The notes under the pieces are model-generated. The model worked only from the letters and a program-made list of their open reading frames with translations, did no database searches and was not told the DNA's origin. A stretch of DNA of 34,552 nucleotides from Xylographa opegraphella. Taxonomy: Eukaryota. The DNA lies in assembly GCA_022813865.1 (NCBI GenBank), contig JALDZX010000110.1, positions 1 through 34,552 on the forward strand, written 5' to 3'. The translations under genes and the position numbers were made by a program. Positions 7,423 to 33,630 of the stretch are shown here, piece by piece. The number at the start of each line of letters is the position of its first letter. The stretch's first letter is position 1.

Positions 7423-9132
7423 TCAATTTTTCACCCGTTTACCTTTGCCCTCTTCGACCTGTAAGCCTACCAGGCGTAGCTCTCCACCATCACCGACCCG
7501 CTCGACAAGCCCTTCTGCTATCATCCAGTCTCGCAGCATTGTATCCTCTACCCACTGCTTATCCTGTCCGTGTCCGCTTTCTAGATGTCGCCCTACATGC
7601 TCCATCCTGGCTTCCCACAAGCCAGAACCCTCGAATACCGTCCCTCGCTGACCAGCTGGGCAGTAACCGCATGAACTGTAAGGCGGAGGATTGCGGATAT
7701 CTATCAGGCAGCGCGCGCATGCAGCTTCAAGAGATGCCGCAAAGCGGTCTTTCTCATGCTGAGAACAAGAGGCTGAGGGAGAGTGCATCCGACGTAGATG
7801 CTGGGTGAACAAATCCTTCCGATTAAATTCATTGTAGATGGGTTCCGGGACTTCTGCCGCACCATGATGAGGGGACTGAGGAAGACACGACCCAAGGTCG
7901 CATCGCCATATTCCGAGCCGGAGGTGCTGGGATGAAACGTGGCGCTTCCATTCATTCTTGGAGCCGAACGTTGCGGGACAACCATAGAGTCTGAAGGTGC
8001 ACGTAAATGGCCTTATATGAACTGTAGATATATGTTTGCTCAAGGCAGCCTTGGAGGAGAGGATCTCCTTGCAATGGGAACACATCACGGTAGCGCCGTA
8101 CCCAGAAGTGAAGAGGGTGCCAGCTTTGATGTCTGGGACTCTAGGTAAGCGCTTACCAATGCCGGATGCAGTTCCTCGTGTCTTGCTTTTCAAGCTTGAC
8201 TTGTTGGTGCGCTTGGCCGGAGATGTGGACCGCTTGCCTTTCTGGGTGGAGTGCGATACACTGGGTTTCCTATGACGCGCAGGAGAGTAGTCCGAACCGC
8301 TCTCGTTTTCTACTTCACTGATGCTCTCATCCTTGATTACCAGCTGTTCCTCCTCGAGAGGGTTGGTCGTCGTTATTTGAGTAGGACTAGGTGACGCTGT
8401 CCCCGACTTTCCCTTGTTGAGTTCTGCTGGTATTTCAAAAGTACTGGAGTCAAAACCCTTGCAGCTGAAGCGGGCAGGATGATCTAGCGCGTCTTCTTGG
8501 TAGATGTCCGGATATTGCTGTACATCTTGTAGCGTAATACCAGGGCCGGAGTATATGTCTTCGACATGCGATGTATCTGATACTCCCGGAGATTGGCAAC
8601 TATTTGTGAAGCACGCAGTCCGCCCTGTACATGGAGAATAACTGGCGGTGTGATAGCTGTTTTGGGTATGGCAATCTTCAAGCTCGATTTCGGTATGACT
8701 CTCACTCGGACCTGGACTCCATGTACTTGCGTCCGACCATGACCCCTGCTCACTAGCCATTCGCTCGTCTGCACACAATCCGGGAGAAACAGATTCAGGT
8801 TGGTGGACCGAAGAAGCCCAAGGAGCAGTGGCATTGTACTTTACCTGGTACCCAATGTGTTCATGCTTGTATACTGGCTGCCAGCCTAACCCATTTCGTG
8901 GGAGCGATAATTCATATTCCGATGGCATACAACAGGAGGCTTCGGTCTGCATTTGTGGATCAAAACCACCGAAACAGTCCATGCGGAAGTGATTCGTATT
9001 CCTAGAAGAATGATTGTTGATTGACGACGACCAATCTAAACGAAGACGATCGTTGTGTACATGAGTCCAAGGCGCATCATCAATCCTGAATTCGATTGAT
9101 GGTAGATCCTGAAACATATTGAATGCCGACAT
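7423..9132 (-). CDS. C2H2 zinc-finger transcription factor A (~569 aa; start uncertain)
   Basis: Fingers: CSHC...HISTVH; RPFTCTFRLYGCPATFGSKNEWKRHVSSQH; WRC...C...FNRKDLFTQHLRRMH; CGYC...WEARMEHVGRH. A basic NLS-like region lies upstream. First in-frame ATG is at 9132 (the ORF-track start at 9204 is GTG). Confidence 0.9.
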   Translation of the reverse strand: MSAFNMFQDLPSIEFRIDDAPWTHVHNDRLRLDWSSSINNHSSRNTNHFRMDCFGGFDPQMQTEASCCMPSEYELSLPRNGLGWQPVYKHEHIGYQVKYNATAPWASSVHQPESVSPGLCADERMASEQGSWSDASTWSPGPSESHTEIELEDCHTQNSYHTASYSPCTGRTACFTNSCQSPGVSDTSHVEDIYSGPGITLQDVQQYPDIYQEDALDHPARFSCKGFDSSTFEIPAELNKGKSGTASPSPTQITTTNPLEEEQLVIKDESISEVENESGSDYSPARHRKPSVSHSTQKGKRSTSPAKRTNKSSLKSKTRGTASGIGKRLPRVPDIKAGTLFTSGYGATVMCSHCKEILSSKAALSKHISTVHIRPFTCTFRLYGCPATFGSKNEWKRHVSSQHLRLGIWRCDLGSCLPQSPHHGAAEVPEPIYNEFNRKDLFTQHLRRMHSPSASCSQHEKDRFAASLEAACARCLIDIRNPPPYSSCGYCPAGQRGTVFEGSGLWEARMEHVGRHLESGHGQDKQWVEDTMLRDWMIAEGLVERVGDGGELRLVGLQVEEGKGKRVKN

Positions 9133-11447
9133 GAGAGGCGCCAGTAACAGCCCCTTCAAAATGCTTATGGCAAAGAACCGCGTAGGAAGCCTGTAAGACT
9201 CCACTGATCCTCAACGATGAAGGCCGTGTTTGGCAATGGTGCAGCTCCAGTCATCTAGAGCACGGTACGTGAAGAATTCGGGCAAAAATATTCTCGCGCT
9301 CGATACGGGAAGCTGAAGGAGGAGGTTGATCGGTCGCAGGTAGGGCTCACGAGGAGAGAATAGTAACGCAAGTTGCAGAAAATGATTGAGCGTGACGACG
9401 TGGGAAGTTTTGGATGTGAAGAATGATCGATGCTTCTGGTTGACAGTGGGGACAAAGTAATTGACGGCATCGCATGGGGTATAGTAGGTGGTATAAATGG
9501 TCAAGAGGGATGGCTTCCCACCACACCGGAGACGTGATGGTACCTCGACCATCAACAGAGCCGCATCTTTTAGCTGGAGAAGCGCGCTATCGAATTCAGA
9601 ACGGTAAATCAAGCTCCCCCTGCAGATGTGATCAAGCACACAGGCTCGCACCATTCAGAACAGGGTCTCGGCAGCGATTCTGGGAGACACTCTTGCAGGA
9701 ATGGTTGGTGGCTTAGGGGAGTGAACCACATAAGGGAGGACGAAAGTAAAAGTAGGCAAGCCGTGACAGGCCCGAGTTCGAGCTGAGCAGTGCACATCCG
9801 GGCGCATGCATGGGGTCAAGGTCCAGCCCGGGGAGAAAGATGTGCATCCATCCTGCACTTATTGGCCGGATGAGTGGACAGCAGTCCGTTTGTGAGGTGG
9901 GGAGCCATGCAGCCTACGGCTCCCGTAACCCGTAAGGTAGCTACCAGAGCGCGAGGGGCGTGCCATCTCTGGTCGCCATTTGCCCCCACGGGCAGGGGCA
10001 CTGCAACGCGACGGCAAGGTCGAAGGCGGCAGCCTCAGGCAAACCACAGGCAGCAGAAGCCAGAAGGGCAGTCTGCCTCGATCCTGGCGAAGCATGGGCA
10101 GCGAGGAACAGTAAGGTACTTCGTAGAGAGTCCTGCCCAAGCGATGCGCCAGTCGCCATTCCCCACCCGCCCCCACTCGAGCGTGACATGCGCGAGGAAA
10201 TCATGCACGCCATGCTGTTTGGAGTCTTGGACTTTCCCATTGTGACCCGCTGATGCTGATCGTGATCGTCTGCATTTGGGCTCCGACGGGTTTCGGTGCC
10301 TTTTTGGTGGCTTAATGTGCTTTGCTTTGATGGGCTTGATGGGCTTGGTGGCTTGATGGCTTGGACACCAGCCTGGATGGTTTGGATGCGGTTGATTGTT
10401 GATGGCTGAACAGTGGACGGTTTCCCCGACCAAGCCTTTGCAAACATGAGGCTCTGTTACTGCGCTTTGTGCTGGCGTCTGGAGTCGCAGCTGCTCGATT
10501 AGAGCGCGGGCGCGGACGCGGAGGGACAAGCGGCAGCCGGATCGAGGTAAGGCCAGCAGCGGAGTCGTCACGTGGCGCTGCGGGCGGATCAGACGCGAGC
10601 AGGGGGCCCGCTCGTCCTACGTCGGAAGAGGACTAGCACGGTACCTAGGACACACCCCACTCCCTAGTCCCGTTGCCTCTTTCTTGGCTCGCTTGCCTTG
10701 CCGCGCTGTCCAATCAGAAACCAGCGCAACTCCGATCGTACTCCCGTACCTTATTATTAGTATGGTACGGAGTGAGTAGGACTACGGACTACCTTACCGT
10801 ACCTACCTACTCCTTTCGTCAGTCACATAGATTATATAGCACGTATCACAGTTCACAGTAGGGGAAGTATCTCTGCCGCCTTGACGATATCAAGAGTCTT
10901 CGCCGTGTCTGCCGTTCGTGCCCTGAATGGCAGCTCCCACATCCAGGAAGTGCGTGCCCGTGCCGCGCTCAGAGTGATGTAGACTAAGGTAGACTACCTT
11001 ACTGAGCTGTTCAAGAGGACGATGACCTGCATCTGCCTTTTTCTCGGAACATGTGAAGCTGGCTTCATTACTGGCCGCAGCTTTGGACTACACATCTGTA
11101 TGGACTTGGAAGTTCCTTGTGTCATGGTCGCATTTGAAGCAGAAGTTGGAGCAATTCTATGGGCGCAGAATTCATCAAGTATGAACCACCGCACTCCTCT
11201 GACTGTAATGAGCGGTTTGCTTCTCCACAAACTGGCTTCAATGCTTCCCTGATGCACCACTTGCCCTCATTTGATCCTCTCATTCACAATGTTGCCGCTA
11301 TGATAGCCAACACTTTGCAGGCCTGGTGAATAGGACGCACCTGGACTGGGCTTGACACGCACTAAACTTGGTCAGGTATGTGCGATCGTCGACCAGAAGG
11401 TCGTCAGCTTGAATGCTCAGACATCTCAGTTCGTACCTCACTCGAAA

Positions 11448-12503
11448 ATGTCACACTCTGCAACTGCACTCTTCACATCGCAGCAACAAGCGGCCGACGC
11501 TCGCAAGACAAGCCACCCTCCAAACATTCACAGCCAACACTTCGATGTGGCAGCTGAACTCACCGCAGCCAATACGTCAATCTTTGATGCGCGCTCGGTA
11601 CAGCTTACCCCTTCAATCCTGAAGTCCCGCGACTCAGCTTTCAGCTTTCCCTTCCTGCAAGCTAGTACCGCTATGTATCAGCGGCCGTTTGACATTAACC
11701 CGGCTCATCCAGTCAGCATCCTGCCTGTCCAGCCATGCTCCTCGAAAGCAGACGCGGCGCAGCCGATGCAGGGTAGACCTGAAGGTTTCGGGCTGCAATC
11801 GGACGCTCTCACGTTTGCCACTGGTGATTCGAATACCGTGCCTAATCCGCAAAACCGCCTTCCCCTTGTCCCGAGCACATACGGTAGCTACGTCGCTGCA
11901 TTCGAGCTCCGCGAGCTTTCCGCCTTCACACTTAACCTCAAGGAGCGTTTTGAGGACATCGCGGGCTCGGCGCATGATGCTTGTCAAGATCTCCTGGTCA
12001 AACTGACCAAGGAGTTCAGCGATGTGATGGAGCAGATCCGTGATCTTGCCAAACACGAAGAAGACAGGGACGTGTGTTCACTTTTAAGAGAGCTCACAAA
12101 TTACCCTGGATCACCTCGTCCCAGCGGATTGGCTCCGCCACAGACCACCAATCAACGGCATCGAGATCAGGATTTGAACTGGCAAGCCTCGACTCTAAAG
12201 TGCATTCATCGACGACGAGACCTCATGGTGCAACACATCAACCTCCTGAGCAAAAGTCGCATGATTGGAGCTTCAAATCCGCGTCCGTACCAGGTAGGGA
12301 AGCTCAACTATGGCCCGGATGCTTCATTCTTGGATTGTTTGCAAATCGAAGGAGGAGAGTGGGAGCGTTTGTGGGACTCCTTTCATGTTGAATGTGAGAG
12401 GGCGGGGCTGACAAAGGAGCGCTTGTCGACACTTGCGAAAGTATGGGGCGTCCAGTTTGATACTCCGGAGACCCTCGGATTTGATTGTCAAGTGGAGGAC
12501 TGA
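11448..12503 (+). CDS. Hypothetical protein (~351 aa), no recognised domain
   Basis: Uninterrupted ORF of more than 1 kb with the first ATG at 11448 in AAAATGT context. Possible upstream intron 11376-11429 (GTATGT...CAG). The C-terminal half looks helical. Confidence 0.6.
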   Translation: MSHSATALFTSQQQAADARKTSHPPNIHSQHFDVAAELTAANTSIFDARSVQLTPSILKSRDSAFSFPFLQASTAMYQRPFDINPAHPVSILPVQPCSSKADAAQPMQGRPEGFGLQSDALTFATGDSNTVPNPQNRLPLVPSTYGSYVAAFELRELSAFTLNLKERFEDIAGSAHDACQDLLVKLTKEFSDVMEQIRDLAKHEEDRDVCSLLRELTNYPGSPRPSGLAPPQTTNQRHRDQDLNWQASTLKCIHRRRDLMVQHINLLSKSRMIGASNPRPYQVGKLNYGPDASFLDCLQIEGGEWERLWDSFHVECERAGLTKERLSTLAKVWGVQFDTPETLGFDCQVED

Positions 12504-14537: not shown

Positions 14538-16442
14538 TCAGGAATATAGACGTTTGAAGGAGTGATCGGGTTCTGGGTCTGCAAGGGATAGTGATCCCCA
14601 ATAATTATCGTTGTTGCCAACATCTTCATCGCTGGCAATTTCGTTGTTACCGTGGTGGAGTTCTGGTTGCCATTTTGTGCCTTTGTCGAAATCAGCAAAG
14701 AGCTGCTGCTTTATAGTCTCATCGATCTTATCAAAGTCGAACACTTCCCGTTCTTCCATCCAGCTCTTCAAGAATTCCATGGATGGCGAATCACCTCCAC
14801 CTTTACCGCCGCGTTTCTCTTCGGCCGAGCCTTTGACTTTTCGGCCCTTAGGCCGGGGATGAAAGTGAACACGCCGTAGGTGGGCTGCTGCATTGTAGTA
14901 GGCTCCATATTCTTTCTGGGCGCAACAAGCCTTGCATTTCGCCAATCGAGTTTTGTCCTCGGAATTATCAACACAGACCCACACCTTGCGGGATTCACAA
15001 TGGTGACGCTCGTAGTGGCGGTGAAGTTCATGCTCACCACGAAAACCATCCGGCCTCTTATTACACATTTTGCATCTGACCTTTTCTTTTTGCGGGCGAC
15101 TGTAATTGTTCCTTGCAATTGCCATAAGCTCTTTCGAAGAGCCGTCTGCCGACTTAATGCGGATCATTTGATGATCTGACGTAGAAGGCTGTCGTGAAGG
15201 AGCTAAATCTTCCTCTGAAAGCTTTGGTGCTATCGGACGCCCGCTTTGGGCGAGCTGCTCTTCCCGCCGCCGTGACATACGACTCTTCATTAAAGTACTG
15301 CCGTCTTTTGACGTAGATCGCTTCATGTCATGATCATCCTCAACTGGGAAAGATAACACGGGAGCTGCTACTACTGGAAAAGGAACGGGAAAAGCTTGTA
15401 AGGCAGAGTTCTGCGAAACACCGCCGGTGTGATAAAGGAGATGGGAACGATCGAAGTCGGATACATCAACGCCACAATCACTATTAGTAGCTTGCATTGA
15501 ACCGACCTGAAGAGAGGAGTGGTCGTCAGGAAAGAAATCAGAGAAATTTGATCGTTGAGAATGAATTTTCATCATCTGCAATCCTCCACACATTGAGCTA
15601 TTCGCATAGCTATCTTGCCGGCTCATACCATGTGAGAGTGTAGTTGCGTCTGTTAGCGTGCGACTCATTTGCGTGGTAGGAGACTGGGAGAAGGAAAACC
15701 GATTACTGCATGGCGATTGTTGACCAGACGATTGCGAAAGTCTCCGAGCAGCTTCTTGGGGTATCTGCCGTGGTGAAGAGCGCTGCTGATCGTAAATGTA
15801 GTTGTTTGGGGTTGCGGTGCTTCTAAGGTATTCCTCCGGGTCGCATACGGTAAGCTCGGAGACCCGTTGAAGAGGTTTCCGCCCGGAAGCTGTCCGTTGC
15901 ATTTTGAATGAGCTGAAAGGTTCGTCGGTATTCGCTTGCCAGTCTTGGATTGGGATTTGGGACGTATCCCGACTCGGATTGGTGAACTGTGAAAAACTCG
16001 AGCTCGAAAGGTTTGACCGCTTTCGGGACATTGACAATGATTGTTGTGATCGGCTTGTGGTTCTGTCTAGCGCGGGCAGGCGGGGTTGCTTCTGGCAGAA
16101 TATTAGTACCTGTGGATGCCAGTGTTGAGATGGTCATGTTACAGATTGACTTTCGGCCACATCAAACTGATAGGTGGGCACCGAGACAGCCGAATGAGCA
16201 ACCTGTAAGTGTGACAGATCAACAGGAGGCTGAGGAGGAGGCGGCGCAACTTCGAGGACGGAATTGATTTCGGAGACACGTTCGGACCACAACCGTTGAC
16301 TTTCTGCCGCTGGAAGGTGCGATTTCTCCCAAAAGAACGCTTCCCTCATCATGCGCAATGAATTGATAAGCATCGTATCTGAAGACTCCACCATAGTCTG
16401 CCCCGTCCTGCTTTGACCACAATGATTTGGTTGATCTTCCAT
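14538..16442 (-). CDS. Zinc-finger protein B, KLAP1 (key lime pathogenicity protein)-like putative transcription factor (~617 aa); exons 16442-16143 and 16091-14538; start uncertain
   Basis: C-terminal CKMC..PDGFRGEHELHRH..RHH...VWVC...CKAC...YGAYYNAAAHLRRVHF...RGGKGGG.SP.M..LK.WM, which I recall as the KLAP1-like family motif. ORFs 16134-16496 and 14538-16037 are in the same frame, separated by one TGA inside a candidate 51-nt intron at 16092-16142 (GTAACA...TACTAAT...CAG). Confidence 0.8.
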
Positions 16443-18165: not shown

Positions 18166-20801
18166 ATGTCCTCAGCAATGGCAGCAAGCTCAATCGAGCC
18201 GCTGTTGAAAGGGGATACGGCTCGTAGTACTCGTGGCTTGCTTCGATTGATAATTCTCTGCACAATTGCTGCAGCCGCAGTTTCCAGTCGTTTGTTCAGT
18301 GTCATTAGTACGTCCTTGACCCCGTTGTACCGAGTTCGCAATCAGCAGCCTTCACAGAGAGTCTGCCTGTTCCGGAGACAAGAAGACTAATGCATGGTCG
18401 TCATGAATAGGATTTGAAAGCATCATCCACGAATGTCGGTCCCTCCTTGTGAAGAGTCACATTCTCAAAAAGCCGTTACTAACACTCTGCAGTCGATCCT
18501 TGGTTCAATTTCCGAGCAACCAAGTACCTAGTGGAGCATGGCTTCTATAGTTTCTGGGATTGGTTTGATGACCGTAAGTAACTCTTCCCGATGGTTGGAC
18601 ACGATCTGTTGCTTCTGCTCGAGTTCCGCGTGAAAACCAGGTACTTATCTTTCTCTTTCAATACAGGAACATGGTATCCCCTGGGTCGTGTTACCGGAGG
18701 GACCCTGTACCCCGGCTTGATGGTCACCAGTGGTATAATCTACCATATTCTACGTTTTCTGTCGATGCCGGTGAACATAAGGAATATCTGCGTACTGCTG
18801 GCTCCCGCATGCTCAGGACTTACCGCATTCGCCTCATATCTACTTACTTCGGAAATGTCAGCAACTTCATCGGCAGGTCTTCTAGCTGCGGTTTTCATGG
18901 GCATAGCACCCGGCTACATCTCCCGTTCAGTCGCTGGAAGTTACGACAACGAAGCCATTGCAATATTTCTATTAGTCTTCACATTTTACCTTTGGATCAA
19001 GTCTATAAAAAATGGATCCGCCATGTGGGGTGCATTGACTGCTCTGTTCTACGGTTATATGGTGTCTGCGTGGGGAGGATATGTCTTTATCACAAATCTC
19101 CTACCTCTTCATGCCTTTGTGTTGATCCTGATGGGGAGGTATAGTCCGAGGCTTTATGTCAGTTACAGTACATGGTTTGCTCTTGGTACTCTGGCTAGCA
19201 TGCAGATACCCTTTGTTGGATTTCTCCCAATCAGGAGTAGCGAGCATATGTCGGCACTAGGTGAATGATCCACGATCACTGTCAGAGTGTAAAGAACTAA
19301 CTATTCAAGGCGTCTTCGGTCTTCTTCAGCTTGTCGCTTTTGTGGAGTTTGTCCGTCAGCAAGTATCGAACAAACAATTCCAAACCTTGCTCAGAAGCTC
19401 CATCCTCGTTATATTCGCTGTATCTCTTGCTGGTTTAGTCCTCCTGACAGTGTCCGGTATAATCGCCCCATGGACGGGCCGCTTCTATTCTCTGTGGGAT
19501 ACTGGATATGCCAAGATCCATATACCCATTATCGCTTCAGTGTCGGAACATCAGCCCACTGCATGGCCAGCCTTTTTCTTCGACCTCAACTTCCTGATTT
19601 GGCTGTTTCCAGCCGGTGTATACATGTGCTTCAAGCAACTAAAGGACGAGCAAGTCTTCATCATAATATATGCGGTCCTCGCCAGCTACTTCGCCGGTGT
19701 TATGGTCAGATTGATGCTGACATTGACGCCCGTTGTGTGTGTGGCCGCTGCACTCGCAGTTTCGAGCATTCTCGATGCTTACTTACGTATCGAATCACCA
19801 GTTGAAGAGGTACTTGGTAACGGCAATACGGAGGATGAAAAAGCAAAGGTGACATCGTCCGCTTTGCAGGACTCCTTGAGATCAACTCGGAATCCTATAG
19901 TGGGTATCTATTCCACGATATCCAAGGTCTCTACCGTTGGGATGATAACTCTTTATCTGCTCATGTTTGTGCTCCATTGTACATGGGTAACATCAAACGC
20001 GTATTCTTCTCCTTCCGTTGTTCTCGCGAGTAAGTTGCCTGACGGTAGTCAACACATCATCGACGATTACAGGGAGGCGTACTATTGGCTTCGACAGAAC
20101 ACTGCCACCAATGCGAAAGTTATGTCGTGGTGGGACTACGGTTATCAGATTGGTGGCATGGCAGATCGGCCCACACTCGTGGATAATAATACTTGGAACA
20201 ATACCCATATCGCAACGGTCGGAAAAGCGATGAGTTCCAGAGAAGAAGTCAGCTACCCAATTTTGAGACAGCACGATGTTGACTATGTTCTCGTCGTATT
20301 TGGTGGTCTTTTAGGCTATTCCGGCGATGACATTAACAAGTTCCTGTGGATGGTGCGCATTGCTGAAGGTATCTGGCCCGACCAAGTACGTGAGCGAGAC
20401 TACTTTACAGCACGGGGCGAGTACAGGGTTGATGATGAGGCTACTCCAACGATGAAGAACAGTCTGATGTACGTATTGTGCCACTTCTCTGGCTTGCGGT
20501 CGTAGAACAAAGTTTTGCTAATGGAACCAGGTACAAAATGTCATACTATAATTACCAGACACTGTTCCCGGCGGGTCAGGCTATGGACCGTGTTCGTGGC
20601 GTCAAGCTGCCAGTCGAAGGGCCTCAGCTCAACACCCTGGAAGAAGCTTTTACAAGTGAAAATTGGATAATCAGGATATATAAAGTTAAGGACTTGGACA
20701 ATATTGGCCGTGATCATGCGAGTGCAGTGGCATTCGACAAGGGAAACAAGAAGAAGAAAAGTGCCAAAAGACGAGGAGCAAGGGCACTAAGAGTAAATTG
20801 A
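18166..20801 (+). CDS. stt3: Oligosaccharyltransferase catalytic subunit STT3 (~756 aa); exons 18166-18307, 18411-18434, 18493-18573, 18667-19260, 19310-20468, 20531-20801
   Basis: Motifs [73 protein letters not shown] and DDINKFLWM. Five GT-AG introns give a 2271-nt open frame. Confidence 0.98.
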
Positions 20802-21637
20802 TTACGACAGGTATAGCTATGTAAAGTCTCTTGAAAACCTGAGAATTCGCCAGTGCAATGAATAAACGTATATTACGCGACAGCGTGGTTTTGGACGGAT
20901 GTATTCGATTTTACGCCAGCTTCGGTAATGTGCTATCCAGTGGTTTATCCTTCTCAATTCGCTGTCCTCTCAAACGACGCCAGCAACAGGCTCTGCTGGC
21001 ATTGCTTGATAAGGTCCACACTGTAAACACTCGAGAGTAGTGGTCCATGCACTGCTCAGCACGAACAGCACCATGTCGCGCATGTTTGGGTCGGTTCGCC
21101 TGTGAGATTGAACTAGCATGAGCATTGCTGCCCAACACCAAAGGACGTAGCAAACCGCATTCAACGTAATAACTTGTCGTCTCCTGAGATTGCGTTTCCT
21201 GCTCCCTGCCTGTCTTCGTCGAACCAAGCAGGATAGTGCCTGATGATTTCCTACCGGATGCTCCATGATTGGTTCGTCGTCACCTTTGGAGGGAGTAACA
21301 AGAAACTCGGTAGTTTGCGCTAAAGAGTATTGTTGTTATTACTGTGGACGAGAGTGCACTTCTCGGCATGGAATCATGTGTAGCGCGTAACTGCTTTTGA
21401 TGGTCGGTGCATTTCTATGTTGGGCGCCGTGTGCAGTCCTCGCAGACATACCATTTGCAGTGATCGCATTGTCTACTTTAAAGTAGTGCAACACGGGCTA
21501 GACAACAGATCTCATTCCAGGCCCACACTCCGACGTATATCTCTATACAGAATACAAACCATAGGAGCAGGAACAAGCACATCATTCGGTACGATCTGAT
21601 CCTTGGATCTTTTCTGTACAGTTCCGATTCCACTGTG

Positions 21638-23855
21638 ATGCCGTTCCCGTATGCAAGTCCTGCTTCCTCTGTGCGCCCACGACGATTGCGAGACAAGGAC
21701 AAGGATATTCGCTACAGAAGCAGCAGTACCAGTTCTCGGCGGTCGAAAGATCCAGCACCGCTCGTTGACGGCAGACTGTCGGCCCACCAGCCATCGACCA
21801 CTCAGCAGTCTCAACATGCCGTGGAAAGCGTAACGCTTGATCAACTTCCTCCATTACCATTGTCCCGAACCACATCCCCTTGTTCGGCAACATCCTCTGT
21901 ACTTCAGACCCAGGCAGGTTTGAAGACTTGCGAGACGGCCACTCAGCCATATTATATTCGTACCCCCGCTTCCCTCCAGCCATACCTGGAGGAAGACACA
22001 GACTCCAACAGACTGTTTGACTCGCCCCTAGCTAATTCCCAACATAGCAGACAATCTCATAATTATTCTCCGACAGAAACTCGGCGAACGTCAAGTCCAC
22101 AATCTGACTCGACTAAGGTGGAAGCTCCCGAGAACCATGAGGAGCTTAAGGCAGAGAATGCTGTAGCTTCAGCGCTCCCGTCTGACATTCAACAACAAAC
22201 TCTTCACGCTTTTTCAGCCGATTTTTCAATAGCACCGATAACAAGTCAAGCGATAGCTGTTGGCAGCCCTCAGTTAGACTCGCAAAGAATACGCCATCGA
22301 ACTCCTTCCTTTGGTACGTATCCAATCAAGGATATCTCCGGATCAGGGTTTTCGCCATCAGTTCACTTTCCTTCGAGGCCGTTCGATAATTTGACAAATG
22401 ATCAACAGGCAAAGACGGCACAGATTGTGCCGTATGTTGCTGGCTATGGTTACCCAACGATGACGCCAATCAACCCTGATACCATTGGAAATCTGTCTCA
22501 CTACGGGCCAAACCAAGATTCATTTGCTTATGAGCATTTGCAATCTCTGCGAAATTTAGGGTATCCCAATGCAAATTTACCCCAGCGGGATCAAGATGGT
22601 GGATTTTCAGGAGACTACGTTAAAGAAAATGATGCCGCAGCTTTGATGTACCGCATTCAAAACACGATGCCAGATATCTATCTCCTCATGGATCGGTATC
22701 GAGAAACAATGGGGCAGCTTGCTTTCCAAGAAAACAGGGCCCGTCAGGCAGAAGCGGAAAAGTCTCAGATTGTGAAACAAAAGGAGAAATATATTGATCA
22801 TCTAGCAACGGAATTGGACTCTGCAGCGCAGAGGCATTTGGCAGAGATCAGCAAGTTTCGGCTTGAGATGAGCATCCTGGAGGAGAAGCACAAGGAAACC
22901 CAAGAAAACCTGGTCGCAAGTGTGGATTCGAGAATGGAACTTGAAAGCGAATTCCAAAAACAGATGAGTCGGACACAAAAAGAACAACGGTTAAAGGATC
23001 AAGCAATGAGAGCCGATATTGACGCTATGATCAAGGCCGAAGCAGCGGTAGGGACTGACATGGCGTTAATCCGAAGAAAGCATACGGAAGAGCTAGGTAA
23101 GGTGAAAGAACAGTGGTTTCAAGAGAGAACCGAACTCGAAGCCAGTCACGCCAGAGAACGAAAAAACCTCGAAATGATCGTACAAACATGTCAAGATAGA
23201 CTGAAAATCGTCTCACAAAGAGCACAAGACGAACGTGAAAAGTGGGGTGATGAGCGCAACAGGCTCCAGCGGGATTGGGACGAGCAGCGCCAGAACCTTC
23301 TGGTGCAGCACACGAAGGAGCTGGAGGAATTGCGAAAAGCTGGGAGGTTGCCGCATGACAGCAGTGAGCAGAGTCGGTTAGAAAACAGAGCCACGGAATT
23401 TCAGCGACAGATCGAGACACTCGAATCGGGATGGGATACCGATAAGACGAACCTGGCAAAGGTTAGGGATACTTCTGGGGAAGCGACCACTCCGAATAGT
23501 CGAGGAAACAAATACTCGTAAGTCGGCGTAACATAATTGCTAAAGAGTAAGATCCTCAAGAAGCAATGTATTATCATAGTAAGTCCAGTGGCTGGGCATG
23601 GACCACTGCGTTACTTGTATGATCTTCTGGACTGATCGCTGGCGCCCGAACAGCATAAAAGCCTTCGGCCAACTGAGAACAGAAAATACTCGATTATTTA
23701 CACATACATGTAGTGGGGAATTGGCAGGTAACCTACCGACCTATATCAAGTATGGCATCCCTGTAAATCTTCCGGATTTCTTCGCAGAGAGTCCATCATC
23801 AATGAGACTTCGCGTCAGCTACATTAAGTATATCATCTGCTGCACCTTGAACTGA
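21638..23855 (+). CDS. Coiled-coil hypothetical protein (~693 aa), probably C-terminally truncated; exons 21638-23517 and 23654-23855
   Basis: Ser/Pro-rich N-terminus followed by a long E/K/Q/R-rich heptad region. Intron 23518-23653 (GTAAGT...CTGAT...CAG) joins in frame to IKAFGQL...YIKYIICCTLN*. Coding-like sequence continues past the TGA. Confidence 0.7.
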
Positions 23856-25325
23856 AGGATATTCAAACCGTTCCTTCTTACACTATATCGACGCCAAAAG
23901 GCCGCCAAATCCAGTATTCGAAGATCGGTCATATAAATTTCGGACGAAATCTGCAAAACGAGAGGCAACGTGGTGACAGCACACGTTGCAAGGGGCATAC
24001 ACTGCATGCCCAGCATCAGATATTTTGTATTCAAAATGCCGGCGACGGAGTGCAGAGGGCTCTGAAACGGATCGTGAAGCTCGCGGTGGAGACATGGAGA
24101 GATGCAAGGTATCAACGCGGGCAAGCCCCGCCAGCAGGGCGCAATCAGACGTGAAGACTGCTCGAGTTCACATCCTCACGACCCTTTCCTTCCCCTCAAG
24201 TAGTCTTGGAGGTAGGGAGGGTTTGCTCCACCTTAATGGTCTTCATCGGACGCATATCTGGCTTGCAAAAAGGCAAGGCCGATCAGGGGTCGCTTGAGCA
24301 CTCCAACCACCTTGGGTACGGAGTATGCACTGTGTACGAACGAGGGAGGTACCCGTGGACCTAGGTAGTACAGGCGCTTCGCGTGATCAGTTCGGTGGCA
24401 TGCAACATTAGTATACATGATGTAGATGTCAGGGCACTACTCGCCTCGACTCATGGACCATGGTCCTCACGGTATTCCGTACTTTGATAGGTCGTGGCAC
24501 TGAATAATGGCAGTCCGCCCCGGATGGTGGCCGAGTACTCCCCCCTAAGCTCCATCAAGCATGGCGCGGTCATTAGTCGGAGTAGGGCTCTCCCCTAGGC
24601 TGTTTTGGGCGAGTAGGCGATTCAGGTAGTAGTTCACACATCAGTAGTTCTACTGAGGGGAAACGCCGAACGGGGCAGATTGACAGCAGCGAGAGTCCCG
24701 CCAGCAGCAGGCGCATTCTCAGTTCTCGGTGAAGAGCATATCAATGCACTGCTCCCTACCGAGCATCGAAAGCTTCTGCTTTAGAAGCCTTGTCGTTACC
24801 CCAGTCGACTGAGCCTCCCTTATCAGCCGCAGTCCAGCAGGGTGTGGGAGGCCACTCATGCCTGTTGCAGTCACATCCTCGCATTCTCATCTTCTTGTGC
24901 TTGGTTGTCAATATCGTCGGCTACTACTGTGCTTCGGTGGACGTGGTTCACTGACTTTTATCTAGTTTATTCGATCGTGCTCTTGACGTTCCAAGTCTAA
25001 CTCCGCGTCGTGCCTACGCTCAAGATTCTCCTCCTCTTTGCCTTCTCTCTTCCCTAATTGCGACACTTGATCATTCGAAAGACCGTTCGATATCCCACGA
25101 TACGTCTCGCCATTGTAAGGCTGGGCGCGGCTTGGATCAGTTTGAGAAGATTCCCTGTTGCTCCCGCTGAGTTGCTCTAAGTCTTAGACATCTCGTTTGA
25201 AGGCAACGTACCATATTATGCTCTAATTGCTCAACTTCTTATCAAGACAGCTCTGGTCTTAGGAGACCGATCCGGCAACGCAGCTGGTAGGGTCAACACA
25301 TTCGAGGGCCTGCCAGGCCGCGAAC

Positions 25326-28300
25326 ATGGATTTCGGGACTACTTCCTCTGTGGTCGACCGTTCGAATACTCTCGCAGCGCATCAAGAGCAAGTTCCCCAT
25401 GACCCTTTTCTTCCTCCAACGCAGAGTCTTGAGCAGTTTCCAAAAATTGGATCCGACCAGTCCCCTTACGGTGAAGAAATGGAACAAGGCATCGACAGAG
25501 GCTCGTGGTCGCACCCACCGTCTTCCAATGTACACCAGACACCTCATATGGATACCATGAGCACCTACGAGTCGTATGCTGTTCATAATTTCTCTGACGA
25601 CCGACAAATCCACGGTATTTCACCACTGACGAATGAGACTTCTGAGTCATACAATAGCACAAGTCTGGTCAATGAGTGTCTCGCAGATTTTGAATATCCT
25701 CGCGTAGATGGGTATGCGGTACACGATTTCGACAACGCTTTTCTTCTCGAAGCAAATTTTGGTCCTCTTCCGATTCCGGAGGAAGGCCTAGAGCGGTTAC
25801 AAGAGGCTGACCCTCCGGAGCCAGAAGAGCCAACCTCGGCCACATCAAACGCTGTCAGTTATACTTCACGCAGGTCTACGGGTATCGCAACTCTGTCTTC
25901 TCACTTAATGAGTCCGAGTTTGACTGAAACTTCGAGCCCGGGATCAGGAACCGATTCAATGAGCCCCAAAATTAAGACAAGGCTTTTAGGCGGTGGCCCT
26001 ATGAGTAGAATTTCATCTCATAGCACGGCTACCGACTCGAATATGCACGGCTATACCGTGCATATTCAACATACTCCTGCTCTAACTGGCAGTTCGGTTG
26101 AGGCAAGCCCGGAGCCAGCGAATAGAGCGGAGCTCTCCCAACATGCAAGTCCCGTGGTCCGTATTGAAACTTATAGCAGGGGAGACTCCCCTGCAAGAGT
26201 CGCAGAATCCATGTCAAGGACTAGGAGCAAACGTAGTCGAAACAGTCGCTCATCTTCTCACCTAGCTGCACCTTGCGACGACGACGACTCCGAGGAAAAC
26301 GATGAGGCTACTTTCACCGACCGTAGCAGAGGTCTCCGTATTTCGGGCACATCTTGGACGGACGAGGAATCTTACAGCACGGTAACACGCACTGGTCTTG
26401 ATCCACCAGCAAGAAAGAGGATGGCTGACGATACGGTCTTGAACTTCAAAGAAGAAGAAGGTAAAGCCGAGTTGGAGGCAAAAAACGCAGAAGTGTCAAA
26501 GTGGTTAGCAACCAGTGAAGTAGGCAATGAGCGTTTGAACACAGTGCAGCCTTCAAGCGGAGTGAGCAAATATTCTGCGTCCACTTCGCGCAGAAGAGCC
26601 AAAAGTACGAGTGACCAAGATGAGCTAGTGGTAAATTCCCACAAGATAGAGAGCGCTCGACGTGCCGCTCAAAGTGCCAGGATTCCAGGTCCTGGAGCAA
26701 TTCTCCTCGAAAATAGTGACGAGGACGAGGACGACGGGGAAGAGGACGTGGGCTCCACGAGCTACGCGGACTCAAGGCCAGCCAGCATCCACGAAAATGC
26801 TGAAGCTGGAATCACCTCAGAAGCTCTATTTCACGGTTCTGGAAATATAGTTGACGACCTAAAACCGTACGACGCCCATCCTTGGGCAGATTCAATTTAC
26901 CTCTATTCACGACAAGACACGCCAGGCCAACCACTCACTTCAAACGCGGCTGTCGTAAAGTTTCTAAAACGAGCAGCTGATATCGAAACAGCTTCGCGGG
27001 CAGCTACCTGGGGCACAAATGTACGAAGGTTGAGTGAAGCGGATCTCGAGCGCATGATCGGGAGAGAAGGGTTGCTCTCACGTCTTTCTATTAGCAAGAG
27101 CAGAGGTAAGGACCAAGGCGAAAGACGAGGGAGTTTCCTAGAACAGGTCGAATACGCTGCCTCCAAGCTCCTCCCCAGAAAGAGTTCCAGTAACGTGAAA
27201 CGCAAAATCAGTGAGCCGATCAACAACCTTTCTGGGGTAGCTGGAGAGCATGAGACGGCTAGGAAGGAAATGACATCCGGTAAAAAGGAGAATGTGCACG
27301 GGCGAAAGGAAAGTCTGGGAAGCCATGCAGGGTCTCCGTCAATGTCGACCAATCTCAGGCGGATGCCCAGTGTTGGCAAGAAAGCCAAGTCTCCCAAGAT
27401 CAATACTAGCAGCGCTGTTGCTGCTGTAGCTACTCAAATTGCTACTCTAGGCGGTACTGGTGCCATCAGTCCTACTGCTGTATCATCCCCGACCGGTGCC
27501 TGGAGTTCTGCTCGAAACGCGCTCAAGCGAACCGCTCGAGGAGACTTCCATCGTGTATCCTCTAACGATACAGAACAGCCAGGGATTGCTGACTTGTGGA
27601 ACCGACAAGGAGGACCACCTCTGCCGTCGTTCTCTTCACCTCCACAGGACAACGAAATTATGGCTACGCTAGGGCCAGCGGCTTTGGTAGACGATGACGC
27701 CGATGCTGACGAGATGGTGGATGAAAAGGGTATCGCCATGGACTTCACGCCGCGGAATGATCTTATTATTCCTACATACGATGGCTTCAAACGTAACGTC
27801 TCTGATATCAACCCTCGCCTAGCACATTACCTTGTGGATCGAATCGGGCAAGAACAGCTTCGACGATACAAGAAGCTGGTCGAATTTAAGGTGAAACATG
27901 CTCAGGCCCGTCAACTCGCTAACTGTGCGTCGGGGACCCACTGTTTTGACAGAGGAGGCGTACCTACATACTTTCCGTCCAAGTCGAGTCAAAAGGAACC
28001 GAGGCTCTCTCACACAGGGTTCTCAACCGTCCCTCAAGAAGAACTCGACGAAGACGAGGAAGTGGTCGCCGACGGTGCCGTAACAGCAGCTCAATTTCCA
28101 CCCGGCGTGCCAATGCCGCCAGTCAAACGGCTCCCCGCGCAATTCGAATGCCCTCTTTGCTTCACTGTCAAAAGGTTCCAGAAACCATCAGATTGGTCTA
28201 AGCATGTGCATGAGGACTTGCAACCTTTCACGTGCACATTTCCAACGTGTCCGGACCCCAAATCTTTCAAAAGGAAGGCAGACTGGGTAAGGCACGAGAA

Positions 28301-29399
28301 TGAGAGACATCGACAGTTAGAATGGTGGAGATGTACGGAGGAGGGATGCGCGCATCAATGTTTCCGCCGAGACAATTTTGTTCAACATCTAGTCCGCGAA
28401 CACAAAATGCCCGAGCCCAAGGCTAAAAACGCAAAACCTAACAAGCCTGCAGTTAGGGGACCAGCAAAAGCTAAGTCTCGGCTTACTAAAGACATGGAGA
28501 CCGATGCCTCATCTGAAGATCGAGTTCTGACTATGATTGAAACATGCCGACATGAGACTCCTAAAAGTCCCACTCAGGAAGCTTGCCGCTTTTGCGGTAA
28601 CATATGCAGTAGCTGGAAGAAACTCACAGTACATCTGGCTCGGCACATGGAACAAATCAGCATGCCGGTGCTTGAGCTGGTGAAGCAGAAAGACGTGACC
28701 CCAGATACCATTGTAAGTCCCATTGAGCCCAGGCTTTCTACACACAGTGGTCTATCACCTCTCCATCAGACCCAGTCATATCCCGACAGCAACCGAGGCG
28801 GGTCGCCACAGCGTAATGCGAGGGGAATCGATAGCGCCAAGCACGAGCTCCCGGCACCTTTTGCGCCTATTCAGAGTGCGGTAGTCTTCAATGCTCCTCG
28901 TTATGAGGACCAAGTCACAGGCACTTTCCCCTGGGGTCATCCCGGCAATACCAGACCTCATGCGCGGTCTCAGGCATCGCCGGCCGCTGACATCCAAGGT
29001 ATAAATGGCACATATCTCTCAAGTCAGATCCCTTACCAGGCAGATGACGCACTGCAATTTGTACCTCCCCATGGCGAGTCTGGATTTGTGCAACAGGAAT
29101 CGAGGTCGCATATTGACAACGTCTATCGCATTATAGGCGCACATTCTCAGCATGTGAACCAAACTCCATACGCCATGGCGAACCCGTATCATATGACCAT
29201 GGAGCAACAACCATTGTACGGCGACCCGTATATCAATGAAAGCGGCTCACCGGAATTGGGCTCTCGTCAAGTCCCAACAAATGCCGCTCTGCCTATTCAA
29301 TATAATATTTCAGACACCCTCCAATACACACAGCCGCCGACAGGTCAATCAGGGTATGCTGTCAACCACGATCAACAATTTTACGCCTATCCCATGTAA
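25326..29399 (+). CDS. C2H2 zinc-finger transcription factor C, 1357 aa, single exon
   Basis: 4-kb ORF. Fingers: FECPLCF...DWSKHVHED; QPFTCTFPTC...FKRKADWVRHENERH; WWRCTEEGC...FRRDNFVQHLVREH; CRFCGNICSSWKKLTVHLARH. Ser-rich and acidic disordered regions. Confidence 0.95.
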   Translation: MDFGTTSSVVDRSNTLAAHQEQVPHDPFLPPTQSLEQFPKIGSDQSPYGEEMEQGIDRGSWSHPPSSNVHQTPHMDTMSTYESYAVHNFSDDRQIHGISPLTNETSESYNSTSLVNECLADFEYPRVDGYAVHDFDNAFLLEANFGPLPIPEEGLERLQEADPPEPEEPTSATSNAVSYTSRRSTGIATLSSHLMSPSLTETSSPGSGTDSMSPKIKTRLLGGGPMSRISSHSTATDSNMHGYTVHIQHTPALTGSSVEASPEPANRAELSQHASPVVRIETYSRGDSPARVAESMSRTRSKRSRNSRSSSHLAAPCDDDDSEENDEATFTDRSRGLRISGTSWTDEESYSTVTRTGLDPPARKRMADDTVLNFKEEEGKAELEAKNAEVSKWLATSEVGNERLNTVQPSSGVSKYSASTSRRRAKSTSDQDELVVNSHKIESARRAAQSARIPGPGAILLENSDEDEDDGEEDVGSTSYADSRPASIHENAEAGITSEALFHGSGNIVDDLKPYDAHPWADSIYLYSRQDTPGQPLTSNAAVVKFLKRAADIETASRAATWGTNVRRLSEADLERMIGREGLLSRLSISKSRGKDQGERRGSFLEQVEYAASKLLPRKSSSNVKRKISEPINNLSGVAGEHETARKEMTSGKKENVHGRKESLGSHAGSPSMSTNLRRMPSVGKKAKSPKINTSSAVAAVATQIATLGGTGAISPTAVSSPTGAWSSARNALKRTARGDFHRVSSNDTEQPGIADLWNRQGGPPLPSFSSPPQDNEIMATLGPAALVDDDADADEMVDEKGIAMDFTPRNDLIIPTYDGFKRNVSDINPRLAHYLVDRIGQEQLRRYKKLVEFKVKHAQARQLANCASGTHCFDRGGVPTYFPSKSSQKEPRLSHTGFSTVPQEELDEDEEVVADGAVTAAQFPPGVPMPPVKRLPAQFECPLCFTVKRFQKPSDWSKHVHEDLQPFTCTFPTCPDPKSFKRKADWVRHENERHRQLEWWRCTEEGCAHQCFRRDNFVQHLVREHKMPEPKAKNAKPNKPAVRGPAKAKSRLTKDMETDASSEDRVLTMIETCRHETPKSPTQEACRFCGNICSSWKKLTVHLARHMEQISMPVLELVKQKDVTPDTIVSPIEPRLSTHSGLSPLHQTQSYPDSNRGGSPQRNARGIDSAKHELPAPFAPIQSAVVFNAPRYEDQVTGTFPWGHPGNTRPHARSQASPAADIQGINGTYLSSQIPYQADDALQFVPPHGESGFVQQESRSHIDNVYRIIGAHSQHVNQTPYAMANPYHMTMEQQPLYGDPYINESGSPELGSRQVPTNAALPIQYNISDTLQYTQPPTGQSGYAVNHDQQFYAYPM

Positions 29400-30330
29400 G
29401 ACCTTGAGCTTGTCATAGATCGATGCCGGTCGAAGATCACTCTGAGATGGGTTTGGCCTTGTCCTTTAGTTAGACACATATCAGTGCTTCGCTCATGTGA
29501 GGGGGGTAAATCTGCGAGACGACGTTATGAAACAATGTTTGTAGAACTTTGGTATTATGTACTGGGGTATTGTTGGATATGCCCGAGTTGGGACGGTTTG
29601 GGTGGGGCCTCCATCAGCGCCGTGTTCGAAAGTCATGAATCTTCACACGAAGACCACTACTCTTGCATACTCACTCCGTCTGTTATACCTGTGGTCAATT
29701 TGCTGATAAAACGTAACGATAAATTGGCGCCTCCGCGCTTTCTCGAGTATTTTGAGCCTCAAGGTTGCAACTAGGCAAGCACGAGGCAAAAAGCAGGCGT
29801 CTCCCGCGGTGTCCGCTAAACTTTCGCACGGTCAGAAGCCACGGAGGCCAAGCCTTGCCTCACTCCGCCTCATTTATCCTCATCATCAAAGCATTTCCCT
29901 CTCAAACCAAGTCTGCCCTGTGCTTGTACTTGATCCAGTATCTGTCATTTACTCGCGCCACCACTAATTGACCAAATCAGACAGCTCGAATTTTGACAAC
30001 CCAATATCCTGCACCGCCTTCAAGTCTTCTAGAAGTGCCGATGGCGAATGTCGTAGAGTCGCAGCTGTAACCCCGCTTAAAGATCAACAAGCAAGGTACG
30101 CTGGGCGAGGCTCAACGCAACGATACCTCTTTACTACTGCCTGGACCATCTGTTCTTGTCCATAACTCATTGGCTTCCAAAATTCTTTTGACCCGCCACG
30201 GTCCAAGAGTGACGAACATCTGACTGCCCACCCAATACGCATTGAGAAAGCACTCAACACTTTCTTTTCCATCTGGTTATGGTAACTAGAACCATTCGCT
30301 GGTGAAGTCGACGCCGATCGGCTATTGAAA

Positions 30331-33300
30331 ATGGCTCATAATAATCCCTACAATGGTCTTGACAGTATTCGGGATGACCGTATTGTACGAACATTCGTTT
30401 CTATTCCCTTACATGTGCTGGAGATTGACTGACGGTGACTCTTGTGTTGTGTAGCCATCGTTTAACCAGAACTTCGAACACAATCCAGAGATCTATATCA
30501 GCTCACAGGATGATATGGGACGTATGGCGCCTCCTCCAGCTCCTCTAGATACCAGGCTTGATCCTTGGCCGCGATCAGTGATGCCCGTGGTTCCTTGCTC
30601 AAATACATCGAGGAGTGATCGCGTGAGTCACAATGGTCACCGATACCATGATAGAGATTGTTTATCCAGCACTTCCGGAGACCTCGATATCTCCAGAGTC
30701 ATGCTTCCAGCCCTAAGGCCTGGTGACCAGGAGGCAGATCCATTACGGCGCTTCTGGGCGACAGACGGCCCGTGGAATCCACAGGCGATTACGGGAGGAA
30801 CTGGGAACCAAGCTCTTAGCCGGGATATCTCTTTGCAGGGTCGTGCGGTGCGCCCCCATAGCTCCTTCCTCCCTTACCGAGAACCCGCCAGATCAGATCC
30901 TGGCAGTCACTTCACAGGCAGAGGCCCCTCTGATTCTGGATACGCTACCAAGAGTCAAGTTACTCGATCCGTCGTCAGTGCTGATTATCGGGATCAGAGC
31001 CAAGAGAATCAGAGTCTGATAGGTGGCATGTTTGGTATTCAGATCCAGGCGCAAGGGAATCCGCACGACTTTTTCTACCGCGACTCCCAGGATACCCGTT
31101 CCTTGGGATACGAGAATTTGAGCAATGACGCCCAAGAAACCGTTAACAACTCATCATCCGTATATGAATGCCAAGATCGTGGTATCACTTGCAAAAATCA
31201 CTCGGACTACAAGTAAGCAATTTCGAAGCGCGTTATAGGTAATCTGTTGTAACAAAGTGTTTATTTCCAGGAAGCACCTGCAACGTTACGGAAAACCCTT
31301 TGTCTGTAAGGAAGCTGGCTGCAACCGTGGTTTGAAGGGGTTTGGTACGAAGAATGATCTCGACAGACATAAGAAAAGCGTGCATCATATCATTCCAGAG
31401 AATACGATGGATAGAAGCTTCAAGTGCGCAGGCACAAATTGTGCCAAGAAAGAAAAAGTCTGGCCGCGTCTGGATAATTTCAAGTCACATTGCATCCGAA
31501 TGCACAACACAGACGACCTCGACGAGCTCATCAAACAGTCAGCCTTCGCTTACGCACAGGGACTGTTCCATGATGCTGATGAGTCCTAGGTCTGAAGTCG
31601 AAGAATTCAAAGTACTTTCCTCTCATACCGACATGCCAAGGTTCTCTTTCGACTCCAAAGCCTCTGAATCAGAAGATGCTGATGAAAATCTGCGCCCAGA
31701 TTGTACTAGTGTCCACAGCTTAGGATTAGCTATGGAGCAAAAGGATCGTGTACCGTCTGCTCAAGCAGTGGCTGCGCATTATGGGCATTCGCTTGCTGCG
31801 GGTACAGATTCTACCGATACTTTAGAACCGGAAATGCTGCGAGGTCTGCCCGGCGGTCATCATGGAGAGCTTGAGCGGCCGGTAGGCGAGCAAGCCAAGG
31901 AGGAACCCAGGACGAGGGCCGACACTGGTTCCACAATTTATATGGACAGTGAGCAATATGCTAGGGTAAACTCAGACAACGATCGGCAACTACCTCCCGA
32001 CGCTCAACCGTCCAGCTCTTGCCGGATGATTGAGAATGATTTCCGACGGAAAGCTTACGCGGATGATCGGCAACCAAGGTTTACATCCAAAGGTCGTTTA
32101 AATGACCTATTTTCTCCGATGTTCAAAATCAAGGCACAGGAGTTTTCCAAAGCTGTCGCTTCTCAGGTTAGTGATTGCCTTAACAACACTAATTCGTCCC
32201 CGGAAGACATAGAATTGATCATTCAAACTCGGGTCATGAGTTTACTAAACGAAAGTAATCCGAAGAAGCGCAAGAGTGGTGAAATCGAATCGGAGGATTC
32301 GACTCAATCGAACACAAAACGAATTACATGTAGCGTATGTCCCAAGACAGTGGGTCGTCTGTGCGATTTAAAGTAAGTCTATTCTGGATCTTCAACCTCA
32401 TCAAAGTACATCCTAATGCTGGAAACAGAAAACATGAGAAGCGTCATTCCCGTCCATGGGGTTGTACTCACGCGAATTGTAGCAAGTCCTTTGGTAGCAA
32501 GAATGACTGGAAACGGCACGAAAATTCTCAACATCCTCAGCATAACCAGCTTGATACCTGGCGTTGTAACGAGCCAACTCCAACTAGCGAAATATATCAA
32601 TGTGCCAAGGTCTCGTATAGGCGGGATGACTTTCAAGATCATCTTAGAGTAGACCACAAAATCAACGATGAAGCTCACATACAAGAGCGGTGTAAGAAGA
32701 GTCGTATTGGACGCAATGGACAAGGTGGCTTCTGGTGCGGATTTTGCAAAGAGGTTGTGAAATTGCATACACGCGGTTTGGAAGCTTGGGATGAAAGATT
32801 CAACCATATTAACGACCACTTCAAACGGGAATTGAGCATCGCGAATTGGTATCCGGTTGACAAGGATGTACCGAAAGGACTGTTGAAGACCAGCAACATG
32901 CACAGCAATGGTGGACTTTATGCCACTATGCATGGCTCTGACTCTGAGCAAAGTGATACTGATGAAGTCTGGGGGAGAATGGGTCCACCCCAACGCCGGC
33001 CACCGCCGCCGCCACCGCCTCCACCGCCTCTTTCGCCTCCGCCTCCGCCTCCACCCAATCTTCCTGATGATGAGTCACCATCTCTCACCATCTCTCATGA
33101 ACCTTTTGTTGAATTGCATTTTGTTCCTTTACAGAAGCAAGCAAATCCAAAACGTCGAGTCAGCGCAAGTGTTAACAGAGTTCCGGAAAGTCAACGGGAA
33201 AAGCTACCGAGATTTTGGTTTTGTGTAAGTAATCAACAGGCGAGAATACTTCGACCACTTTCAGCTAAATTGAATCTATAGTGTAAATGTTCTGCAGGTC

Positions 33301-33380
33301 CTTACAATACCTCTTTTATTCACAGTTGTCTCGGAGATTCCTGCGCGCATCGAGGATGTAGCTCCTGTAAACGTGAATAA
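30331..33380 (+). CDS. Multi-finger C2H2 transcription factor D (~918 aa); exons 30331-30384, 30455-31212, 31271-31537, 31590-32372, 32429-33224, 33282-33380
   Basis: Five GT-AG introns join the ORF-track fragments into a 2757-nt frame. Fingers: KPFVCKEAGC...DLDRHKKSVH; FKCAGTNC...RLDNFKSHCIRMH; CSVC...DLKKHEKRH; RPWGCTHANC..FGSKNDWKRHENSQH; WRC...RRDDFQDHLRVDH; WCGFC...WDERFNHINDH. Also a poly-Pro tract and a terminal WFCCKC...C...C.H..C..C. Confidence 0.9.
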
Positions 33381-33443
33381 TATAAAAATAATAAATTCTA
33401 AGGAATATAATATCTAAGGAATATAATATATATATATATATAT

Positions 33444-33630
33444 TGTCACGAGCTTCCTCTTGCTGCCAGGGCTCGAAGGGCTCGTGGAAGCTTCTGTCTG
33501 CCTTAAGGGCAGGCAGCACCTTTTGCTTTATTTGCACTGTAAGCGAGATTTTATATAACAGAGTCTTCCTTTATAATTATAATAATATTTTATATATATT
33601 ACAAAATACGACGTAATTTTAATCGTTACA
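33444..33630. mobile_element. Candidate solo LTR, 187 bp
   Basis: Starts TGTCACG and ends CGTTACA, the same termini as 1118-1615. The 5' half is GC-balanced inside AT-rich DNA. Only a 4-bp ATAT flank match in a TA-rich context, so the TSD is weak. Confidence 0.5.

Follow-up and report, generated by a model that had tools for sequence, protein, structure and literature searches.

Why should several zinc-finger regulators lie around a housekeeping gene on one short contig of a lichen fungus, and is their proximity older than the fungus itself? The contig JALDZX010000110.1 of Xylographa opegraphella (assembly GCA_022813865.1), analysed here over its whole length of 34,552 nucleotides and called the window, is one entire contig of a 24.7-Mb genome assembled in 241 contigs. 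The original prediction placed four zinc-finger genes, A to D, around stt3 between positions 7423 and 33380, and regarded them, three with one finger array in common, as an old, physically linked family of regulators. Genes C and D are homologous, belong to old separate clades and form the core pair of this linkage.

The gene calls confirm the coordinates, strands and introns first proposed for the three related genes. Gene A (7423-9132, minus strand) encodes 569 amino acids and has no intron, gene C (25326-29399, plus strand) encodes 1357 amino acids, likewise without intron, and gene D (30331-33380, plus strand) encodes 918 amino acids in six exons separated by five GT-AG introns. The finger motifs quoted for them are present and can be aligned, with 19 invariant columns across six module copies. 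The proposed module is indeed common to A (7540-8091), C (28140-28658) and D, where it is C-terminal, but it holds four fingers and not three, the extra one sitting ahead of the first finger described earlier, and D carries a second, N-terminal array of three fingers as well as a Cys-rich tail. The first finger of this N-terminal array (31160-31290) has lost one Cys and one His compared with the orthologues and is degenerate in this genome.

All three proteins display tandem C-x2-6-C ... H-x3-5-H fingers with their aromatic core. They resemble the classical C2H2 proteins Zif268, GLI and TFIIIA in Cys/His spacing, aromatic core, linkers and base contacts by Arg, Asp and Asn. What sets them apart is a Trp within one finger's helix and a second Trp preceding the first Cys of the finger that follows, besides long inserts and a separated fourth finger, and most of their fingers fall below the PF00096 cut-off: against the curated 25.2 bits, A scores 15.6 bits at best and C and D give no match. 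The closest solved structures by sequence in the PDB are the DNA-binding C2H2 arrays of GLI, TFIIIA and WT1. A fold search with a model of mean confidence (pLDDT, predicted local distance difference test) 69 returned no match at E<=0.001, the best being at E 0.023, and every listed match was a C2H2 protein.

The residues expected to touch DNA are conserved within each gene. In the shared second finger, positions -1/+2/+3/+6 read S/N/E/R in 99 of 120 A homologues (13 not parsed), S/N/D/R in 100 of 150 D homologues (11 not parsed) and R/A/D/R in 120/120 C homologues (0 not parsed), so that the likeness of the A and D recognition helices, already remarked on in the original prediction, is kept across orthologues. 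The finger that follows begins R-K-D in A and C, and the N-terminal array of D shows T/D/R in 67 of the 69 parsed sequences, with R-D-N in the next finger. According to the standard finger code, the contact residues of A, C and D would read nAG and then GCn. On the basis of these conserved helix residues and of this code, A, C and D are predicted to be sequence-specific DNA-binding transcription factors recognizing G-rich sites of the nAG-GCn type.

Profile-profile comparison gives probabilities of 98.2% for A-C, 99.6% for A-D and 99.0% for C-D. In a tree of 33 module rows, A forms one group (98/96), D another (90/92) and C a third, with two long unlinked rows as exceptions. A and D join the unlinked homeodomain-finger genes C157 and C113 (97/97), and C joins the unlinked genes C172 and C161. 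An exclusive A+C+D clade is thus not what the best tree contains, since unlinked genes are mixed in; forcing the three together costs 8.3 log-likelihood units (approximately unbiased (AU) test, p=0.09, on a 20-row subset; long branches meet in both trees). To judge from these alignments, A, C and D are ancient homologues in separate old lineages. Recent tandem duplication is ruled out by this separation, in line with the initial view that they are not recent copies. C is also distinguished by the zf-C2H2_AcuF domain (PF26082), known from the precomputed annotation of its homologues as the model was missing from the local Pfam scan result; A and D are devoid of it, and C constitutes a near-single-copy orthogroup of 1.2-1.45 thousand amino acids. 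C also has a lineage-specific, recent and unlinked paralogue in the same genome, on contig C231 (403762-404277); the modules of the two are 73% identical, and no further gene of the cluster lies within 20 kb of the paralogue.

The array is less unusual than had been proposed. At least ten genes of this genome carry the module (A, C, D, C231, C157, C113, C169, C2, C172 and C161), a lower bound obtained from four single-protein searches and inspection, and the D module matches 1282 clusters at 50% identity (E<=0.001). For comparison, PF00096 has 95 matches genome-wide. Nevertheless, finding three of ten module genes inside 26 kb of 24.7 Mb has a probability of about 4e-4 under random placement, and of 0.013 if thirty module genes are assumed. 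The module is therefore not rare in these fungi, yet its local density is above chance. A second adjacent zinc-finger pair exists on contig C172 (136224-138432), where an AcuF-type module gene lies 2 kb from a three-finger C2H2 gene.

Linkage outside lichens was followed by scanning metagenome contigs with the finger region of C. The best 80 of 151 loci, with at most 10 kb on each side, were reduced to 44 species-level clusters, of which 35 lie outside the clade that contains the named Lecanoromycetes and 9 belong to it; two mis-cut rows (Schaereria and Psora) in the C-fragment tree were disregarded, and the class labels of non-lichen clades are inferred from gene order or left open. D orthologues were accepted at a family hidden Markov model (HMM) score of at least 100 bits. 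Where at least 6.5 kb downstream of C was visible, 13 of the 15 non-lichen clusters had D, as did 5 of the 7 from lichens; the remaining 22 of the 44 were too short for this count, and three of these also show D. With both flanks of at least 9.5 kb, the non-lichen clusters contain D in 12/13, the coiled-coil gene CC, which lies on the opposite flank of C, in 5/13, stt3 in 4/13, the Cys4 gene X4 in 4/13 and A in 1/13. The single A orthologue, in the deep-clade locus L043, lies 9.5 kb from C and scores 95 bits against 16 with the C profile and 10 with the D profile. Being within 10 kb of C in only these four of 13 loci, stt3 is a frequent neighbour of the C-D pair and not the anchor it was thought to be.

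Gene order adds to this picture. The order C-D-stt3-X4 is found in four clusters of one non-lichen clade, which we would guess to be Dothideomycetes, and CC-C-D in another, where locus L023 reads CC-C-D-AAA/bromodomain. The CC-C-D loci have in common with a stretch of Aspergillus fumigatus chromosome 8 the neighbours AAA+bromodomain, ORC3+TPR and cystathionine gamma-lyase+Rpc25. There, according to PMC4551469, AFUA_8G04270 is an AAA ATPase, 04290 and 04300 are each annotated as 'C2H2 finger domain protein', 04310 is hypothetical and stt3 is AFUA_8G04430, 13 locus numbers from the C2H2 pair. We infer from gene order, not from sequence, that the CC-C-D loci are Eurotiomycetes and that AFUA_8G04300/04290 correspond to C/D. 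In Magnaporthe oryzae, no transcription factor among MGG_0476x-0478x near STT3 (MGG_04773) appears in 12 of the 13 supplements of PMC3675110, whose short text makes this a weak negative; the supplements of PMC7194077 contain no matching gene IDs. Close C2H2 pairs do occur in Fusarium graminearum (FGSG_04083/04084, 07735/07737, 07751/07753 and 04288/04293), and none is tied to C or D by sequence among the 60 of 93 rows of PMC3197617 that were available. Next to C, a gene resembling the ribosome-biogenesis gene NSA2 by eye was recorded in a deep clade and in one lichen cluster (loci L034 and L031-L033).

Among lichen fungi, locus tags from three homologue lists (the best 120 each of 1491, 1342 and 1491 matches) could be compared. 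B and C are 3-4 tags apart in 6/6 named assemblies common to both lists. A is linked in 7 of the 13 named lichen assemblies, where 2-9 tags separate it from B or C. In the other six A is on a different contig, namely in five Xylographa/Lambiella assemblies and in one where B sits on a 1.9-kb contig; these may reflect assembly breaks or moves. The linked cases cover Ostropomycetidae and Lecanoromycetidae. In the lichen clusters with both flanks of at least 9.5 kb, stt3 and CC are each present in 6/6, D in 4/6 and A in 1/6. The order is stt3-CC-C-D(-A), and stt3-CC-C-D-A fits inside 20 kb in L025/L029. One lichen cluster (L009, L014, L015) has D in inverted orientation to C while the two are still adjacent. 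The proposal of an old physical linkage thus finds support from several clades where C-D is concerned and, for A and B, from the Lecanoromycetes; the linkage is uneven, with A met once outside lichens.

A conserved sequence precedes C. When the 1.3 kb preceding each of 27 C orthologues were scanned de novo, AAGGCTGA was found in 16 of the 27 regions, with 2.0 expected and 9 for the top 8-mer in shuffled sequences. Its broader form, YRAGGCWGAY, occurs at 33 sites where the non-coding background of these loci predicts 3.2; the sites lie in 20/27 regions, the consensus having been picked on the same data. By clade, the regions with sites are 7/8 in lichens, 5/8 in the Eurotiomycete type, 7/7 in a third clade, 1/2 unplaced and 0/2 in the deep clade. 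When picked in one clade, AAGGCTGA was found in 10/20 and 10/19 of the other regions, compared with 0.9 and 1.4 in control windows and 0/200 as high. The C-D intervals have another element in common, AGTGAGGC (12 vs 1.5), which is seen in the window at 29857-29864 on the minus strand and also in other clades. Conserved regulation of C through its upstream element is shown at the level of these promoter comparisons, and the element is compatible with binding by A/C/D-type fingers or by SltA/CrzA. A site derived from the finger code of C, AGGCG[GT]C[GT], was tried and dropped, its signal being weak upstream of D (7/22 vs 3.25 in shuffles, 3/100 as high) and upstream of C (7/27 vs 4.6, 16/100 as high). 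In the third clade, ACGTGAC lies about 95-130 bp before the C start codon in L039, L040, L045, L076, L081 and L086.

Taken as a whole, an explanation that we consider about evenly poised between right and wrong would run as follows. The four-finger module would have diversified early in filamentous ascomycetes, giving the A, C and D lineages. As the loci show, C and D have remained head-to-tail, the core pair of a slowly rearranging housekeeping block; stt3, CC, X4 and the other genes of this block come and go from one lineage to the next, and A and B belong to it more loosely, as seen mainly in lichens. C would be controlled through the repeated YRAGGCWGAY sites, most likely bound by the N-terminal array of D or by C itself, and joint cis-regulation may help to hold C and D together; this last step and the control of C are the weakest of the chain. 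Cross-regulation among the cluster genes, as first proposed, is plausible, with indirect support from the conserved promoter element.

Several observations weigh against this explanation. Two lichen clusters lack D within 10 kb downstream of C, and in the deep clade with intron-bearing C, D is absent from both informative clusters, with 10 kb and 6.7 kb visible. The loci are phylogenetically dependent and represent the best 80 of 151 matches. In the window itself no YRAGGCWGAY site lies upstream of C; one of its two sites is found at 10071-10080 on the minus strand, about 0.95 kb upstream of A, where it may be due to chance. The element shows no enrichment upstream of D (1 vs 2.9), and of its 9-10 bases no more than about 6 fit the finger code. 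Its AGGC core is also that of the CrzA site GAGGCTG, which it resembles, and of the SltA/ACE1 site. It is a longer 10-mer, and its commonest variant AAGGCTGA is not AGGCA and fits neither site exactly. SltA/ACE1 bind AGGCA, according to PMC3698166, and could explain the AGGCA variant. Finally, housekeeping neighbours are conserved elsewhere: the gene for the dynein intermediate chain lies close to stt3 in A. fumigatus (04460), as it does in M. oryzae (MGG_04773, MGG_04771), which indicates a generally conserved block, and as such neighbours stay together across classes, the C-D linkage may need no regulatory cause.

This leads to the strongest of the other readings, a serious possibility although we lean against it, in which a very old local duplication simply persisted in a slowly rearranging essential block and the element is a SltA/ACE1 or CrzA site unrelated to linkage. 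The stt3-dynein proximity speaks for it, as do ORC3+PPR, cystathionine gamma-lyase+Rpc25 and AAA ATPase genes, which turn up repeatedly near C-D as well as in the A. fumigatus block, the AGGCA specificity of SltA/ACE1, and the syntenic pairs and triplets that last between distant ascomycetes according to PMC3778014. It accounts less readily for the retention of D in 12/13 loci where CC, flanking C opposite D, is kept in 5/13, for the clade-specific nature of the remaining neighbours and for a main element form, AAGGCTGA, that differs from AGGCA. The opposite extreme, an ancestral A-B-C-D cluster anchored on stt3 and working as one cross-regulating developmental unit, appears improbable. It can call upon the short distances, 3-9 locus tags, within which two subclasses of lichens keep A, B, C and stt3, upon the compact stt3-CC-C-D-A loci and the A gene of L043, upon the C-D-stt3-X4 clade and upon the site upstream of A in the window. 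However, B is unrelated by profile and in none of the 80 loci did its HMM match within 10 kb of C (B being here about 13 kb from the anchor and the flanks 10 kb, this is no evidence of absence), A is on another contig in 6/13 named assemblies, some of them maybe assembly breaks, stt3 is missing from 9/13 non-lichen loci and the best tree does not unite A, C and D to the exclusion of other genes.

A related reading, unlikely in our estimation, is an ancestral Pezizomycotina circuit of paralogous zinc-finger genes. It would have been built on a C-D core, A, perhaps joined by B and X4, would be among its original members, D or C would bind YRAGGCWGAY upstream of C, and the linkage would be under selection. 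The reading that zinc-finger genes gathered by chance, or recently, on a single gene island of this lichen draws on how common the module is and on the roughly 0.7% of A. fumigatus rows (70 rows) annotated as C2H2, a frequency at which one adjacent pair per genome is unremarkable; it is refuted by the linkage recurring in dozens of other fungi and by the old separate lineages of A, C and D, and we regard it as extremely improbable. A metabolic gene cluster was also considered and dropped: stt3 is the only enzyme that the Pfam scan met within the span, where such a cluster would have pathway enzymes, a transporter and a pathway-specific regulator.

The remaining genes complete the block. The 7423-33380 span holds seven genes (A, an unconserved open reading frame, B, stt3, CC, C and D), in agreement with the locus-tag spacing in relatives, and not eight; the eighth, X4 (main open reading frame 4626-6173, plus strand), which the original prediction overlooked, lies outside. 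X4 is single-copy, without Pfam match, bears a conserved but unclassified Cys4 motif (C-x2-C ... C-x2-C) and directly follows stt3 in loci L040, L045, L071/L076 and L082 of one non-lichen clade, which makes it a putative fifth zinc-binding member of the block. B (main exon 14538-16133, minus strand; 5' end uncertain, the public gene model extending to 17354) is the only DUF7896 gene of the genome (PF25438, E 7.5e-29, above cut-off). It has two C2H2-like fingers that echo the spacing of the others, as proposed, yet it is no family member, with profile-profile probabilities below 3% against each of A, C and D and no measurable homology to their module. Its orthologues occur in Eurotiomycetes, and there may be a link to KLAP1 of Colletotrichum. 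The stt3 gene (18166-20801, plus strand, start approximate) encodes the oligosaccharyltransferase catalytic subunit. CC (21482-24120, plus strand), whose place beside C is conserved, consists of an open reading frame at 21482-23521 and a conserved 3' exon at about 23650-24120; this exon contains in-frame stops and frame changes here and is intact in four other fungi compared, so that CC is truncated or decaying in this genome. The reading frame for 389 amino acids at 11334-12503 (plus strand) is a lineage-restricted filler gene without Pfam match or counterpart in the 80 related loci.

The closest named homologues of the window proteins belong to Xylographa species, lichen-forming Lecanoromycetes. 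The genes make up an island flanked by AT-rich contig ends with guanine-cytosine contents of 0.19 and about 0.3; the end regions (1-1020 and 33380-34552) are repeat-like and fit repeats degraded by repeat-induced point mutation, and the contig start is what we take to be a remnant resembling a ribosomal DNA cut site known from fungal assemblies. Beside the AT-rich end, positions 1900-3700 contain a broken short-chain dehydrogenase (plus strand) and a transporter-like piece (minus strand) identified by eye without Pfam match, both probable pseudogenes.

How does this block compare with known systems? Hox genes and other clustered arrays of paralogous transcription factors in animals are old regulators held in linkage; the present block differs in having 2-3 paralogues only, interleaved housekeeping genes and variable order and orientation. 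Conserved gene neighbourhoods are reportedly the subject of the EvolClust survey, and gene-neighbourhood databases may list the block without comment. The nearest likeness is ascomycete microsynteny as described in PMC3778014, where a handful of orthologues remain inside 20-40 kb from class to class and order, orientation and fillers vary, with the difference that the most stable pair here is formed by homologous transcription factors, two in number, and comes with upstream elements that are conserved. Full-text searches, whose coverage mostly excludes subscription papers, found no description of the block or of the A. fumigatus pair, and the C-D linkage is apparently an old and undescribed conserved non-metabolic neighbourhood.

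Fungal gene clusters have been studied almost solely as metabolic units. Two homologous and uncharacterised transcription factors that have remained adjacent across classes, one of them with a conserved 10-bp upstream element, offer a way to test whether regulatory wiring holds non-metabolic fungal genes together, and the Aspergillus candidates AFUA_8G04300/04290, proposed from gene order, together with a predicted site and its likely binders, make this test direct. If the circuit were real, it would be a fungal counterpart of clustered developmental regulators. Even a neutral linkage would give three unnamed families of regulators their orthology, a predicted binding site and a marker of synteny.

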